DNA of 64,000 nt, from assembly GCA_016191875.1 (NCBI GenBank), contig JACPVG010000004.1, positions 1,832-65,831 on the forward strand. The letters are read 5' to 3'. How positions within the stretch are numbered: position 1 is the stretch's first letter; every line of letters begins with the position of its first letter. Below are positions 2,028 through 36,747 of the stretch, in pieces. The notes below the pieces were generated by a model. It had not been told where the DNA came from, ran no database searches, and saw only the letters and a program-made list of their open reading frames with translations. This stretch comes from Chloroflexota bacterium (lineage in GTDB: Bacteria; Chloroflexota; Anaerolineae; Anaerolineales; UBA11579). The position numbers and the translations under genes were made by a program.

Positions 2028-2478
2028 TGTCATTCCGAGCGAAGCGAGGAATCTGGCGATAGGCAGGCACTTTCGCGCACTTCCCTCGCCGGACCCATCA
2101 ACCCTATGAGCAAGCGCAGTTATTTCGTCTACATCATGGCAAGCGCTTCCGGCACGCTTTACACCGGCGTGACCAACAATATCCATCGCCGGGTGCTTGA
2201 ACACCGTGCCGGGAAGAACAACGGTTTTACCAGCCGTTACAACATCACCAAACTCTGGTATCTTGAAGAAACGGACGACATTAGCGCTGCGCTTGAACGC
2301 GAGAAACAGATAAAGGGCTGGCGTAGAAGCAAGAAGATTGAATTGATTCGATCGCTGAACCCCACTCTCAAAGATATGAGCAAAGAGTGGCTTCAAGAAT
2401 AGGATGGTGTTCCGGCGCGGCAGTGATGTGCAGTCAGTCAACTCTTTCGCGAGATTCCTCGCTGCGCTCGGAATGACA
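2028..2478. mobile_element. Compact GIY-YIG cassette bounded by ~34-nt inverted hairpin repeats
   Basis: Left end 2028-2059 is TGTCATTCCGAGCGAAGCGAGGAATCTGGCGA. Right end 2445-2478 is TTTCGCGAGATTCCTCGCTGCGCTCGGAATGACA, its near-perfect reverse complement. The element begins 3 nt after the MaoC stop and ends just before the RBS of the next gene. Confidence 0.55.
2106..2402 (+). CDS. GIY-YIG nuclease family protein (small UPF0213/COG2827-like type)
   Basis: YFVYIMASASGTLYTGVTNNIHRRVLEH followed by REKQIKGWRRSKK, the classic GIY..YxG..R..E layout. 98 aa. Confidence 0.85.
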   Translation: MSKRSYFVYIMASASGTLYTGVTNNIHRRVLEHRAGKNNGFTSRYNITKLWYLEETDDISAALEREKQIKGWRRSKKIELIRSLNPTLKDMSKEWLQE

Positions 2479-2489
2479 TGGAGACTAAG

Positions 2490-3353
2490 ATGACCCACCG
2501 CCCCCGCCGCGCCCTGCTCTACATGCCCGCCACCGACTGGCGCAAAATCGAAAAAGCCGCCACCGAACTGGTGGTCGACAGCGTATGCATCGACCTGGAA
2601 GACGGCGTGGCGCTCAACCGCAAGGAAGAAGCCCGCGTCGCCGTCGTCAAGGCGCTGGGCTCACTGGACTTCGGCCCACGCGAACGCCTGGTGCGCATCA
2701 ACCCGGTCGGTTCCGGCCTGGAAGCCGACGACCTCAAGACCGTCGTCCCCGCCCGGCCGGACGGCATCGTCGTCCCCAAAGTGAACGACGCCGATGAAAT
2801 CCGCTGGGTGAGCAAAACCGTGCGCCGCCTGCAAAACGAACATGGCCTGCCGTCCATCGGCCTCATCGCCATCGTCGAGAGCGCCCGCGGCATCGTCAAC
2901 CTGCGCGAGATCGCCGCGGCGGATGCCCGGCTGGAAGCGCTCATCTTCGGCGCCGAAGATTTCGCCAGCGACATCGGCGCAGTGCGCACGGAAGCCGCCA
3001 TGGAGGTGTTCTACGCCCGCAGCGCGGTCGCCGCGCACGCCGCTGCCTTCGACTTACAGGCCATCGATCTGGTGCGCACCGACTACAAGGACATGGACGC
3101 GCTGGCGCGCGAAGCCCGCCAGGGGCTGGAGATGGGCTTTAGCGGCAAGCAGGTCATCCACCCCGCCCAGGTGCCGGTGGTGCAGGTGGCCTTCACCCCC
3201 ACCGCCGAAGAAGTGGCCTGGGCGCGTAAAGTGGTGGAGGCGCACGCCGAGCACCAGAAGAAGGGCGCCGGCGCGTTCGCCATTGACGGCAGGATGATCG
3301 ATATGCCGGTCGTCAAAGCCGCCGAGCGCGTGCTGGCGCGGGCGAGGCGGTAG
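2490..3353 (+). CDS. HpcH/HpaI aldolase / citrate-lyase beta (CitE)-like acyl-CoA lyase
   Basis: CitE-like sequence (RALLYMPA, IDLEDGVA, FGAEDFASD, GKQVIHPAQV). ATG at 2490 has GGAG 6 nt upstream. The track start at 2478 lies inside the repeat. Confidence 0.8.
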   Translation: MTHRPRRALLYMPATDWRKIEKAATELVVDSVCIDLEDGVALNRKEEARVAVVKALGSLDFGPRERLVRINPVGSGLEADDLKTVVPARPDGIVVPKVNDADEIRWVSKTVRRLQNEHGLPSIGLIAIVESARGIVNLREIAAADARLEALIFGAEDFASDIGAVRTEAAMEVFYARSAVAAHAAAFDLQAIDLVRTDYKDMDALAREARQGLEMGFSGKQVIHPAQVPVVQVAFTPTAEEVAWARKVVEAHAEHQKKGAGAFAIDGRMIDMPVVKAAERVLARARR

Positions 3354-16945: not shown

Positions 16946-17369
16946 AACCATTCAGTTTGAATTTGTGGACACCAATATCCTCGTCTATGCGTTTGATAAC
17001 AGCGCAGGAAAGAAACGGGATGCAGCGCGGGCGTTGGTGGAGACTTTATGGCAGGAGCAGCGCGGCGCGCTGAGCGTGCAGGTTTTGCAGGAGTTCTATG
17101 TGACGCTGACCCGCAAACTGCCCCAACCGCTGCGCCCGGAGCAGGCCCGGCCGCTGATCGCTGACTTTGCTACCTGGAAGATCTACAGCCCAACGGCCGA
17201 AGATGTGCTGGCGGCGATTGACGTGCAGCAGGCGCATGGCGTCTCATTCTGGGATGCGATGATTTTGCAGGGCGCGCAGGCGTTGGGCTGCACGCAGGTG
17301 TGGTCAGAAGACCTGGCGCATGGGGAGATGTACGCCGGGGTGCAGGTGCTCAACCCGTTTGCGGGTTAG
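16935..17369 (+). CDS. vapC: PIN-domain ribonuclease toxin VapC
   Basis: FVDTNILVYA (first acidic residue), VLQEFY and FWDAMIL motifs. 144 aa. Confidence 0.8.
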   Translation: MSVETIQFEFVDTNILVYAFDNSAGKKRDAARALVETLWQEQRGALSVQVLQEFYVTLTRKLPQPLRPEQARPLIADFATWKIYSPTAEDVLAAIDVQQAHGVSFWDAMILQGAQALGCTQVWSEDLAHGEMYAGVQVLNPFAG

Positions 17370-17379
17370 AATCGCACCC

Positions 17380-18807
17380 ATGTCCGACTTGTTTGACTAT
17401 TCCATGAAGCAAAGCCTGAAGACCGAAGCGCCGCTCGCCGCGCGCATGCGGCCGCGCAACCTGGGCGAGTACATCGGCCAGGAGGAGATTCTGGGCGAGG
17501 GGCGGCTGCTGCGCCGCGCCATCGAGGCCGACCGGCTGTTCTCGTCCATCATCCTCTGGGGGCCGCCGGGGACAGGCAAAACCACGCTGGCCATGGTCAT
17601 CGCCGCGCACACCGAAAGCCACTTCGAGACCCTCTCTGCCGTGCTGGACGGCGTGGCGCGCCTGCGGGATGTGGTGAACGATGCCCTCGAACGCCGCAAA
17701 CTGTACACCAAGCGCACCATCCTGTTCGTGGACGAGGTGCATCGCTGGAACAAGGCCCAGCAGGACGCGCTGCTGCCGCACGTGGAGAACGGCACGGTCA
17801 CGCTCATCGGCGCGACGACCGAGAACCCCTACTTCGAAGTCAACAGCGCGCTGGTGTCGCGCTCGCGCGTCTTCCAACTGCGCCCCCTGCTGGATGCCGA
17901 CGTGGCCAAAATCCTCGCACAGGCCCTGGCGGATAAAGAGCGCGGGCTGGGTGGGTATACCGTGAACCTGCACAAGGATGCGGAGGAGCACCTGATTCAC
18001 GTGGCGGGCGGCGATGCCCGCAACGCGCTGAACGCCCTGGAACTGGCGGTGCTGTCCACCCCGCCGGACAAAGACGGCGTGGTGCAGGTGACGCTGACGG
18101 TGGCGCAGGAGAGCATCCAACGGCGGGCGGTGCTGTACGACAAGGACGGCGACGCCCACTACGACACGATTTCGGCGTTCATCAAGAGCGTGCGCGGCTC
18201 CGACCCGGATGCGGCCCTGTACTGGCTGGCGAAGATGCTGTACGCAGGGGAAGACCCGCGCTTCATCCTGCGCCGCCTCATCATCCTCGCCGGCGAGGAT
18301 ATCGGCCTCGGCGACCCGCTCGGCATGGTGGTGGCTTCGGCCGCCGCGCAGGCCTTTGACTATGTCGGCCTGCCGGAGGGCATCTACCCCCTGGTGCATG
18401 CCACCCTGTACCTGAGCACCGCGCCGAAGTCCAACACCGCCAGCGCCTATTTCAAGGCCTTCGAGAAAATCGAGAAAGACGGCTTGGTCGAAGTGCCCGA
18501 CCATTTGAAGGACGGCAACCGCGACGCCCGCGCCCTCGGCCACGGCGAAGGCTACGACTACCCGCACGCCTTCGAGGGCCACTACACCCCCCAGCAGTAC
18601 CTGCCCGACGAACTGCGCGGCACGTATTTCTATTTGCCGAGCGATCAGGGCTACGAGCAGCAAGTGACCGAGCGCCTAGAACGCTGGCGACGCGCCCAGC
18701 GGGCGGCCCTGGGCATCACGGAGACGGCCGAAATCCCCGACTTGAGCGAAGATGAGATCAAAGACATCAAGCAGCGCCACAAGCCGACCGGCGGCAAGGG
18801 CGGGTAG
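17380..18807 (+). CDS. rarA: Replication-associated recombination protein A (MgsA/RarA AAA+ ATPase)
   Basis: LAARMRPRNLGEYIGQEEILG, GPPGTGKTTLA, LFVDEVHRWNKAQQDALLP, GATTENPYFE. Confidence 0.9.
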   Translation: MSDLFDYSMKQSLKTEAPLAARMRPRNLGEYIGQEEILGEGRLLRRAIEADRLFSSIILWGPPGTGKTTLAMVIAAHTESHFETLSAVLDGVARLRDVVNDALERRKLYTKRTILFVDEVHRWNKAQQDALLPHVENGTVTLIGATTENPYFEVNSALVSRSRVFQLRPLLDADVAKILAQALADKERGLGGYTVNLHKDAEEHLIHVAGGDARNALNALELAVLSTPPDKDGVVQVTLTVAQESIQRRAVLYDKDGDAHYDTISAFIKSVRGSDPDAALYWLAKMLYAGEDPRFILRRLIILAGEDIGLGDPLGMVVASAAAQAFDYVGLPEGIYPLVHATLYLSTAPKSNTASAYFKAFEKIEKDGLVEVPDHLKDGNRDARALGHGEGYDYPHAFEGHYTPQQYLPDELRGTYFYLPSDQGYEQQVTERLERWRRAQRAALGITETAEIPDLSEDEIKDIKQRHKPTGGKGG

Positions 18808-18874: not shown

Positions 18875-18928
18875 TGTCATTCCGAGCAAACCGACGCTGC
18901 GAAGCAGCGTTCGGTCAAGCGAGGAATC
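18875..18928. repeat. Solo copy of the 34-nt hairpin-repeat family with an extra hairpin inserted in its loop
   Basis: TGTCATTCCGAGC [AAACCGACGCTGCGAAGCAGCGTTCGGTC] AAGCGAGGAATC. Confidence 0.7.
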
Positions 18929-18993
18929 CCGTTCTACACCCTTCTTTCAGACCGGCCCACTGGTAATCGACCCCGACTCGCGACCCTTCGCTG

Positions 18994-19060
18994 GCAAATG
19001 CCGGAGGCATTTGCTTAGAGTTGGGGAAAGCCCAACTCCATTCGCTCAGGGTGACAAGCC
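18994..19060. repeat. Two-hairpin repeat element, copy 1
   Basis: GCAAATGCC-GGA-GGCATTTGC, then TAGAGTTGGG-GAAAG-CCCAACTCCAT. The homologous copy is at 40362-40410. Confidence 0.7.
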
Positions 19061-36420: not shown

Positions 36421-36747
36421 TGTCATTCCGAGGAAGCGGTCAGCCCGGCTTTGAACCTGCGCTCAACCCACCCCGCGACCGAGGAATCTCGCGAACGACT
36501 CCACGGTGGCGGCAATGAATCAGCGGAAAAGAGACATGGCGGTCAAGATTCTCTTCAGCTTCGCTCAAGACAAGCTCTCAGTCGGGTTGGAAGAAGAGTA
36601 TGAAGTAGAGTGAGATTGACCCTCCTTCTTGCTCAATCAACGCCGCACCCGATTGAAGAATCTCGCATAGGTGGCACTGCACCGGCGAGATTGATGCCGC
36701 AGCGCCGATCGCCTTTCGCGAGATTTCTGGCTGCGCTCGGAATGACA
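36421..36747. mobile_element. ORF-less 327-bp element bounded by the same inverted hairpin repeats as the GIY-YIG cassette (MITE-like derivative)
   Basis: Left end is TGTCATTCCGAG[49-nt insert]CGAGGAATCTCGCGAA (36421-36495). Right end is TTTCGCGAGATTTCTGGCTGCGCTCGGAATGACA (36714-36747). Confidence 0.5.

Follow-up and report, generated by a model that had tools for sequence, protein, structure and literature searches.

Our concern here is with one small piece of DNA: a 451-bp cassette, consisting of a stand-alone GIY-YIG gene and the two inverted hairpins that bracket it, which lies between two operon genes on contig JACPVG010000004.1 of a Chloroflexota bacterium (assembly GCA_016191875.1). 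By the window, we mean the whole stretch of 64,000 nucleotides (nt) that was analyzed. The cassette starts at position 2028, 3 nt past the stop codon TAA (2022–2024) of a MaoC-like gene, and sits exactly in the spacer between that gene and a CitE-like one, with just T2479 between its end and the GGAG ribosome-binding site (RBS) of the latter. A first-pass annotation of this DNA had put that GGAG at 2481–2484, 2 nt from the cassette end, whereas it lies at 2480–2483, 1 nt away. The same annotation had seen a GIY-YIG open reading frame (ORF) between inverted hairpin repeats, placed exactly in an operon spacer, and here it was right by Pfam match, arm complementarity, and covariance model alike, with coordinates good to within one base. 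The features of the locus are as follows.

1572–2024, + strand: MaoC-like (R)-hydratase, the upstream host gene, outside the element (Pfam MaoC_dehydratas, E=1.7e-28); it adjoins the CitE-like gene in seven relatives
2028–2062, + strand: left inverted arm; hairpin proper 2028–2054, with an ATTCC/GGAAT stem and a GC-GAA-GC tip, then an 8-nt element-specific extension (covariance model, 46.5 bits, E=4.7e-7)
2106–2402, + strand: stand-alone GIY-YIG gene for a predicted nuclease (Slx1/UPF0213-like) of 98 amino acids (Pfam PF01541, AF2, Foldseek)
2444–2478, − strand: right inverted arm; hairpin proper 2452–2478, TGTCATTCCGAGCGCAGCGAGGAATCT (covariance model, 45.7 bits, E=6.5e-7)
2490–3353, + strand: HpcH/HpaI aldolase or citrate-lyase-beta-like (CitE-like) gene, the downstream host gene, outside the element (Pfam HpcH_HpaI, E=1.1e-50)

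The 98-codon ORF matches the GIY-YIG family PF01541 over residues 6–77 with 58.2 bits against a cut-off of 22.6 (E=1e-15); it is the only ORF in the cassette, which holds no DDE transposase gene. The two 35-nt arms are 91% complementary. Read from its outer end, an arm is TGTCATTCCGAGCG(A/C)AGCGAGGAATCT, the 25-nt cores of the two being identical save for one loop base (A vs. C), and it can be read as a tail of 4 nt (TGTC), then the stem ATTCC/GGAAT of 5 bp with two G.A/A.G oppositions above it, and GC-GNA-GC as the tip. In the repeat family at large, the distal stem is short and variable, and GC-GNA-GC is its usual cap. The 21-nt arm core occurs three times in the window and not once in 100 shuffles, and the covariance model that scores the ends was built on 63 unrelated hairpin copies. 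Searched against Rfam, the window reached the gathering score of no family anywhere, and 1950–2550 gave nothing relevant at E<=10.

In composition, the ORF stands apart: it has 49% G+C and 63% at third codon positions (GC3), against a GC3 of 83–87% in the neighboring genes and 64% G+C in the window. No promoter-like site and no intrinsic terminator was detected inside the cassette, and because there is no such promoter and the ORF is co-oriented with the gene upstream, expression by read-through from the MaoC operon is the simplest reading and probably the right one. The start of the CitE-like gene at 2490 matches that of relatives, which have the start sequence ATGACCCACCGC in common with it; the first CitE-like ATG of the mechanical ORF list (2478) straddles the junction between element and host and is, that is to say, created by it.

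The Junction in Relatives

What does this junction look like where the cassette might never have been? We compared the contigs that carry the seven closest MaoC homologues, which are 94, 91, 88, 83, 81, 80, and 78% identical. All seven keep the order biotin-carboxyl-carrier gene, MaoC, HpcH/CitE, and in all seven, the GIY-YIG gene and its cassette are absent from the MaoC–CitE junction: the two genes overlap in L084 and L223 and are separated by 13 nt (L085), 17 nt (L220), 40 nt (L082), 81 nt (L083), or 61–95 nt (L221, where the CitE start is uncertain). The comparison of empty and filled sites, which the first-pass annotation had proposed, thus shows that the cassette is not fixed in all relatives. 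Because it is missing from these orthologous junctions and because its G+C content is foreign, we conclude that the 451-bp cassette is an insertion in the MaoC–CitE spacer.

One relative deserves a closer look. In L082, TGTCATTCCGAGCGCAGCGAGGAATGACA follows directly after the stop TAG and is itself followed by the RBS, which makes a single 29-bp closed palindrome at the cassette's exact position. Judged by its sequence, this palindrome may be either a target or the scar of a deletion (slippage between the GGAAT of the left and right hairpins would yield it). In another relative (L085, 91% MaoC identity; 1660–1690), the MaoC frame ends in ...CCGGAATGA and is followed by CGAGGAG; 9 nt of that junction, CGGAATGAC, are identical to the right end of the cassette. 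They could be what is left of that end, a scar of excision from which the frame now takes its stop codon, or else chance.

Gene and Hairpins Travel Together

Is the pairing of this gene with these hairpins peculiar to one genome? With one genome taken per species, a tblastn scan yielded 579 loci, and our statistics concern the best 80, all of them matches to a single query and so a biased sample of the family. These 80 loci span at least 15 phyla: Chloroflexota (38 loci), Acidobacteriota, Cyanobacteria, Planctomycetota, Proteobacteria, Bacteroidota, the candidate phyla radiation (CPR), Gemmatimonadota, Nitrospirota, Deinococcota, and others. A strict motif, TGTCAT-YCY-GAG...CGA-RGR-ATC, its stem paired, is found no more than 300 nt from the gene in 64 of them, and the remaining 16 have stem variants (ATGCT/AGCAT, ACCCT/AGGGT, GTCGTCCTGAG, TCCGAACGCAGTGAGGA, and others); the suggestion that GIY-YIG relatives elsewhere might be flanked by the repeat thus holds for 64/80 loci by the strict motif and for nearly all once variants are admitted. 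The density of the strict motif falls from 3.7/kb in the first 250 nt on each side of the gene to ~0.03/kb past 1 kb, a difference of about 100-fold, and the motif never occurs within the gene.

Moreover, the type of hairpin tracks the protein: proteins with a common stem type are 64.5% identical vs. 61.3% otherwise (0/1000 permutations), and in annotated records, homologues at 41–51% identity adjoin other hairpin interiors. Those of Aeromonas, Photobacterium, and Azospirillum are of CCCGCG types (GTCATYCCCGCGNAGGCGGGRATCC); Shinella has GTCATCCTCGGGCTTGACCCGAGGATCC and Sinorhizobium meliloti has CTCATCCCTGTGCTCGTCACAGGGATC near its GIY-YIG homologue; and in Neisseria gonorrhoeae, the homologue (45% identity) lies within an array of the Neisseria intergenic mosaic element (NIME) type, the hairpin GTCATTCCCGCGCAGGCGGGAATC there being the dRS3 repeat. 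Gene and hairpins, we conclude, travel together across phyla.

The same question can be put from the side of the hairpin. We collected at least 120 metagenome and at least 120 viral (IMG/VR) loci by hairpin alone, and the counts that we give for them cover the matches listed. A GIY-YIG homologue turns up ~400 nt or less from the hairpin in 5 of the 120 listed metagenome loci; of the 64 that extend 600 nt or more to each side, one has the gene inside 400 nt and another has it at 426 nt. When all ORFs within 1.5 kb of these 120 metagenome hairpins are clustered, GIY-YIG is the most recurrent family (5 loci), and no transposase or recombinase family recurs near them. The viral contigs with the exact hairpin pattern, at least 120 of them (L224–L343), are predicted ones and may be true phage, prophage borders, or host contamination.

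We note in passing a locus in S. meliloti record CP090106.1 (L213, 1830–2930), where a GIY-YIG gene stands downstream of hfq-hflX amid at least three copies of a ~240-nt unit made of two inverted hairpins, CTCATYCCTGTG...CACAGGRATC. The record is labeled pSymB though it is 3.7 Mb long and is probably the chromosome.

Selection for Pairing

If the hairpin matters as a shape, then its stem should have changed in step on both sides, and it has. The pattern used for the metagenome scan fixed the pyrimidine (Y) and purine (R) classes and left pairing free. Its 140 distinct matches have C-G as the outer free pair in 66 cases, T-A in 74, and anything else in 0 (Fisher 1e-41), and the inner one is C-G in 50, T-A in 87, C.A in 3, and T.G in 0 (Fisher 8e-35). 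In the 63-sequence alignment, the outer five pairs are circular evidence, being required by selection of the copies, whereas the two tip pairs are not so constrained; they read GC 54/AU 9 and CG 45/UA 8/UG 6/GU 1/other 3. Wobble pairs are confined to the tip pair, with 0/280 in the outer stem, and the loop base of the 140 matches is A in 65, C in 53, T in 18, and G in 4. The hairpin is under selection for pairing.

Which strand is it that folds? The G.A/A.G oppositions are invariant and are present on the TGTC strand alone, the complement of which would give T.C/C.T, and for this reason, we take the folded single strand to be the functional form. Tandem sheared G.A pairs form preferentially within 5'-Y-GA-R-3', and as a DNA mini-hairpin, d(GCGNAGC) is exceptionally stable. 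Context and tip alike fit single-stranded DNA, an RNA form being possible too.

Doublets with and without a Gene

The window holds six hairpins in three +/− doublets with TGTCA...TGACA ends, at 2028–2478 (with the gene), 18875–19056 (182 bp), and 36421–36747 (327 bp), and one GIY-YIG gene. Beyond the cassette ends, the covariance model finds one further compact copy, at 36721–36747 (24.7 bits, E=0.008), and a pairing-aware pattern search adds three copies with long loops, at 18876–18927 (+), 18983–19055 (−), and 36422–36487 (+). The gene-less doublets are built as follows.

18875–18929, + strand: left hairpin of doublet 18875–19056, with an ATTCC/GGAAT base, a longer distal stem, and a GAA loop (single-stranded DNA fold −14.9 kcal/mol, z=−3.0)
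18983–19056, − strand: right hairpin of doublet 18875–19056, an ACCCT/AGGGT stem variant with a 54-nt loop, its + strand ending ...CAGGGTGACA (pattern search)
36421–36489, + strand: left hairpin of doublet 36421–36747, its loop carrying a 47-nt insertion (pattern search)
36721–36747, − strand: right hairpin of doublet 36421–36747, degenerate with two pairs broken, with the extension ...ATCTCGCGAAAG as in the cassette right arm (blastn, covariance model)

The ACCCT stem variant is the usual doublet partner in other genomes as well, and by blastn, the end at 36721–36747 is identical to the cassette right arm (2444–2478) at 33/35 positions. Otherwise, the gene-less doublets of the window have just ~35 nt in common with the cassette. 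The 327-bp element had been described as lacking an ORF and ending in terminal repeats, and indeed it has no ORF and no GIY-YIG similarity; that it might be a decayed GIY-YIG cassette is ruled out, as tblastn and blastn match its terminal repeats alone. A tblastn match at 18553–18765 (E=0.03) is a chance one, falling in the C terminus of a 495-aa ORF (17320–18807), and no second GIY-YIG remnant was found anywhere in the window. A supposed solo repeat at 18875–18928 turns out to be the left hairpin of the 182-bp inverted doublet. What, then, is left of the earlier picture of a mobile element in autonomous, non-autonomous, and solo forms? The unit is inserted, it is tied to hairpins, and it has gene-bearing and gene-less relatives; the strict transposon with terminal inverted repeats (TIRs) and the solo copy do not survive.

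Across all loci, we count 464 hairpins and 120 adjacent +/− doublets, the lengths of which are bimodal: ~82 doublets are 60–120 nt long (median near 85, mode 80–100), and ~20, which bear the nuclease ORF of ~290 nt, are 300–500 nt long. Their flanks have no consensus and no target-site duplication (TSD), at 1/120 for k=3 and 0/120 for k>=5, with none at the three doublets of the window. At 53 two-sided loci, the hairpins nearest the gene are oriented +/− in 27, which places the gene inside a doublet, and −/+ in 14, where it is flanked by whole doublets or belongs to an array; 10 loci are +/+, and 2 are −/−. L002, L010, L026, and L074 carry arrays of hairpins. In the +/− cassettes, the 14 nt just inside the hairpins agree at 8.1/14 positions between the cassette's own ends vs. 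4.85/14 between loci, and matches of at least 10/14 occur in 32% of same-cassette end pairs vs. 0.55% of different-locus pairs. The ends of a cassette thus match each other beyond the universal core, so the two ends of one unit are copies of each other.

At several element ends, the outer half-hairpin, with 10–16 nt of flank, is tandemly repeated two to four times. Such stuttering ends are seen in L212 (18543–18590 and 19310–19400) and in the flanks of L036, L050, L021, L055, and L068, and they suggest repeated breakage and repair near the hairpin tip. In L044 (~2340–2500) and L066 (1–133), the intact gene is preceded by a hairpin, and upstream of that hairpin lies a second, truncated copy of the 5' part of the GIY-YIG ORF (ATGCGCGAGT.TCACGTCTACATCATGTCGAACCGATCG...). 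By crude stop-to-stop ORFs, on which these statistics rest, hairpins are mostly intergenic: 40% lie inside a long ORF vs. 83% of random positions, and for 44%, a converging stop codon is no more than 100 nt away.

The Protein

The window protein has a minimal GIY-YIG domain, the Pfam match taking up residues 6–77 of 98, and no second or DNA-binding domain was found in it. In an alignment of 20 homologues, Y9, Y19, G21, R29, H33, and E66 are invariant, and the catalytic Tyr/Tyr/Arg/Glu positions are kept; N85-P86 is invariant as well and may or may not be the counterpart of the Asn of UvrC and I-TevI, and the family has a conserved C-terminal motif, K-G-W-x-R-x-K-K ... N-P. A C-terminal Asn is typical of the UvrC and homing endonuclease lineage and is absent in the Slx1-type branch (PMC1564403). 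The AlphaFold (AF2) model has a mean confidence score (pLDDT) of 90.4, and Foldseek ranks UPF0213 structures 1zg2 and 1ywl ahead of the Slx1 nuclease domain in its first nine places, with UvrC appearing first at rank 46. An hmmsearch of solved structures returned as sole relatives the same two, BH0048 (1zg2; E=3.7e-8, ~25% identity) and EF2693 (1ywl; E=1.3e-4), and neither NCBIfam nor PADLOC gave a match for the window protein. By fold model and sequence match, we place it in the Slx1/UPF0213 stand-alone branch of the GIY-YIG superfamily as a predicted nuclease. Slx1 is a structure-specific endonuclease that acts on branched DNA, and Escherichia coli YhbQ belongs with these stand-alone proteins.

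The family is large, with >7,000 word-index matches and ~14,000 clusters at 50% identity, and the nearest non-self relative of the window protein is just 66% identical. Dunin-Horkawicz et al. (2006) placed the stand-alone proteins in the Slx1 family, with a predicted role in repair and mostly vertical descent; repeats are unmentioned (PMC1564403). Many members (P0241–P0389; P0034, P0072, and P0095) are annotated at 120–180 aa, of which 30–45 additional residues at the N or C terminus fall outside the alignment; most likely, judging from the sequences, these gene calls run through the flanking hairpins, and repeat-derived peptides pollute the annotation.

Horizontal Mobility at Low Copy Number

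The proteins pay little heed to phylum: mean identity is 63.9% within phyla vs. 61.5% between them, the nearest neighbor belongs to the same phylum for just 33/81 proteins, and Anaerolineae and Planktothrix proteins are up to 81% identical. The eleven closest pairs (83–93% amino acid identity) have nothing in common within 5 kb save the gene and its hairpins. Copy number is usually one per replicon (43 places in 39 records), and the two copies found in one metagenome-assembled genome (L037 and L079) are 66% identical and have different hairpin types. We reject a plasmid or phage as vehicle; 39/72,556 plasmid records match, mostly chromids or mislabeled chromosomes, and phage matches are all <41% identical. 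From these comparisons, the gene behaves as horizontally mobile yet low-copy.

Where it lands, the upstream neighbor is co-oriented in 62/72 loci (p=3e-10), and the downstream one is in 46/74. Insertions into operons include sufB-GIY-sufC (Azospirillum), GH43-GIY-GH127 (Spirosoma), and, in a DISARM operon of Planktothrix, MmeI-type gene-GIY-drmA. In that same DISARM operon (L212, Planktothrix agardhii plasmid NZ_LR882964.1, 13000–13880), drmD and the MmeI-type gene have between them a gene for a "four helix bundle protein," with heptamer tandem repeats on both sides (CCCCAAT, CGTAAAT/GATTTAC); it is a second, different small gene with repeats wedged in an operon spacer.

What Moves the Hairpins?

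On balance, and with modest confidence, we favor the view that the 451-bp unit belongs to a family of hairpin doublets, of which it is the form that carries the gene, and that this family works like the system of REPINs (inverted doublets of repetitive extragenic palindromic, or REP, sequences) and RAYTs (REP-associated tyrosine transposases), with an Slx1/UPF0213-type GIY-YIG nuclease as its enzyme. Such a nuclease would recognize the folded hairpin, in single-stranded or extruded DNA, much as Slx1 recognizes branched DNA, and would nick the folded strand either at its tip or where tail and stem meet; host repair, replication, template switching, or recombination would then copy or relocate the doublets, the gene-less ones being acted on in trans and the nuclease's own cassette in cis. 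The joining step would have to come from the host, because a hydrolytic nuclease cannot itself rejoin DNA. A relation of the REP/RAYT type fits better than an insertion sequence (IS) with miniature inverted-repeat (MITE) derivatives, because hairpins overwhelmingly occur without the gene. A more sweeping statement, namely that we are looking at a pan-bacterial class of mobile DNA, in which hairpin doublets are propagated via a shape-reading, hydrolytic GIY-YIG nuclease with joining by the host and to which dRS3/NIMEs and the proteobacterial "GTCAT...ATC" palindromes belong, is tentative, and we would sooner doubt it than assert it.

Several points weigh against the view that we favor. The first-pass annotation had expected repeat and gene to co-occur and had named repeats occurring independently of the gene as grounds for giving up its interpretation; in this converse direction, the tie fails, in that just 5 of the 240 listed hairpin-selected loci carry the gene, 235 are without it, and none of the 120 listed from IMG/VR has a GIY-YIG gene nearby. 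(The same ~98% of hairpin-selected loci without a gene nearby leads us to reject the idea of an RNA element that controls the GIY-YIG mRNA.) Around the gene, the hairpins do not keep to one orientation. One identical protein, P0115, occurs on 24 contigs from many samples always with the same neighbors (PBP-GIY-DinB), a context constant on every contig read, and there is no sign of recent transposition. The compact hairpin, at −4.2 kcal/mol (z=−0.46; ViennaRNA DNA parameters), has no edge over shuffles; nearest-neighbor parameters give no credit to G.A pairs or GNA loops, and because this energy is not significant, the argument for structure is an argument from covariation. A GIY-YIG hydrolase, moreover, forms no covalent intermediate and so cannot transpose DNA alone, and we know of no member with activity on these hairpins, nor did our search turn one up.

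What else might explain these loci? The main rival is a homing-type parasite, which we consider unlikely: the hairpins would spread by other means, and the free-standing GIY-YIG enzyme would cut gene-less hairpins or doublets, repair then copying the gene in with the repeat as short homology. In its favor are genes inside doublets (27/53 two-sided loci), a single palindrome at the same site in L082, presence that is polymorphic between conserved operon genes (MaoC–CitE, sufB–sufC, DISARM), hairpins that far outnumber genes, and half-hairpin duplications at element ends. However, 98 amino acids leave no DNA-binding domain of the homing GIY-YIG type, the gene-less doublets of the window match the cassette over ~35 nt alone, and homing efficient enough to reach hundreds of targets should have left many almost identical copies, where there are one to few divergent ones per genome (66% for L037 vs. 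L079). Rather improbable as well is a nuclease in the service of the host, one that removes or resolves repeat hairpins and cruciforms or processes their RNA while another activity, such as an IS110-type recombinase, moves the repeats. An Slx1-like fold, a single stable locus within species, the predicted repair role and vertical descent of stand-alone Slx1-like proteins (PMC1564403), and dRS3 as a known target of a phage recombinase (PMC1797815) would all suit it. A housekeeping gene, however, would not be absent at the site in seven close relatives and compositionally foreign; nor do a phylogenetically scrambled distribution, a gene wedged in conserved operons such as sufB–sufC, and the lack of any recombinase family recurring near the hairpins sit well with such a role.

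The 35-nt, element-specific inverted ends, the gene-bearing and gene-less size classes, and the polymorphic insertion might bring to mind a classical autonomous TIR transposon with MITE derivatives, in which the 451-bp unit is mobile as such and the GIY-YIG protein is its transposase. This we think quite improbable, for there is no TSD (1/120 at k=3), orientation is not fixed, whole doublets or arrays often surround the gene (L007, L010, and L017), no multi-copy identical elements were found, and GIY-YIG enzymes are not known to have strand-transfer chemistry. A DDE transposon with TG...CA ends is ruled out by the lack of TSD and transposase. An integron cassette, with the hairpins as attC analogues, is also set aside, there being no integrase and no ORF array in the loci examined, among which no dedicated search was made. 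Finally, gene and hairpins could be unrelated and simply pile up together in permissive intergenic spacers. Hairpins are indeed mostly intergenic (40% in long ORFs vs. 83% of random positions) and usually without the gene, but mere coincidence is very hard to credit when the enrichment at the gene is local, ~100-fold, and repeated in at least 15 phyla; when hairpin type tracks protein clade and the ends of one cassette match each other; and when just three doublets in 64 kb include one that holds the sole GIY-YIG gene.

If the REPIN/RAYT-like view is true, several things follow. An orphan family of stand-alone GIY-YIG proteins, now "predicted repair" at most, gains a lead on its function; the NIME/dRS3 arrays, known in Neisseria since 2000, gain a candidate for their long-sought enzyme partner; and the symbiosis between repeat and enzyme that REPINs and RAYTs exemplify would have been invented independently a second time with different chemistry. 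Many spurious small ORFs and N-terminally over-extended GIY-YIG calls would be explained, and cassettes inside operons (sufBC, DISARM, and MaoC-CitE) would be flagged. The protein might also be of use as a tool, being a small nuclease that is predicted to be specific for structure and to act on a compact, well-defined hairpin of DNA.

Comparison with Known Systems

The first-pass annotation knew of no IS family based on a small stand-alone GIY-YIG protein, and we found no description of such a gene-hairpin element in the open-access literature, subscription-only papers lying outside that search. There are, nevertheless, several systems that it resembles in part. The stand-alone Slx1-like/UPF0213 proteins have the same minimal GIY-YIG domain and are the best matches in sequence and fold; the sequence match is weak, however, and the conserved C-terminal motif is found here. 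The free-standing homing endonucleases of the T4 Seg type likewise have a GIY-YIG domain, a gene between conserved co-oriented genes, and presence/absence polymorphism, but they are 200–300 aa long with DNA-binding modules and long asymmetric duplex sites, and they lack flanking hairpin repeats and gene-less derivatives. IS200/IS605 elements have sub-terminal imperfect hairpins read as single-stranded DNA, without TSD or classical TIRs, but they need an HUH TnpA, which is absent here, and their ends are two different hairpins in direct orientation.

Closer in sequence are the dRS3 repeats and NIME arrays of Neisseria, reportedly described by Parkhill in 2000. The outer sequence GTCATTCC...GGAATC is common to dRS3 and the window repeat, and both form inverted hairpin pairs with 50–150-nt spacers, in arrays, in intergenic DNA. 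Yet dRS3, a 20-bp ATTCCC-N8-GGGAAT, has a fully paired interior, whereas the window repeat is ATTCC-N11-GGAAT with G.A pairs, and dRS3 has been linked to an unknown recombinase or a phage IS110-like enzyme, not to a GIY-YIG gene. In the account of Bentley (2007), a site-specific recombinase was hypothesized, with a phage-encoded transposase that integrates in dRS3 as a plausible candidate; the NIME/dRS3 arrays influence recombination around surface-antigen genes, NIME arrays had not been seen outside Neisseria, and a GIY-YIG gene is unmentioned (PMC1797815). On the likeness of the repeats, we have filed the window type in a putative superfamily that includes dRS3/NIME.

The closest likeness in organization is to REP/REPIN sequences and RAYT genes, which Nunvar is said to have described in 2010. 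In both systems, the repeats are short palindromes outside genes, each with a conserved 5' tail that is single-stranded, and they mostly come as inverted doublets able to fold as one long hairpin; in both, the gene-less copies run to hundreds, and the enzyme gene, flanked by its own repeat type, is present once or a few times; and in both, there is no TSD, and the closest relatives of the enzyme are in different genomes. Bertels and Rainey (2011) list as traits of REPINs and RAYTs that the repeats are palindromic and extragenic, that their unit is the inverted doublet, that the enzyme gene is set in its own repeat type and is single or low in copy number, and that its closest relatives are in other genomes (PMC3116915). 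The differences are plain as well: here, the tail is TGTC (theirs is GTAG), the hairpin has conserved tandem G.A mismatches, and the hosts are Chloroflexota, Cyanobacteria, CPR, Planctomycetota, and others (theirs are mainly Proteobacteria). Above all, the enzyme is a GIY-YIG hydrolase of ~95 aa, from which no covalent DNA-protein intermediate is expected, and not an HUH/Y1 tyrosine transposase. The cassette would thus work like the REPIN/RAYT system without being a member of it, because its enzyme is not an IS200/IS605-like HUH tyrosine transposase.

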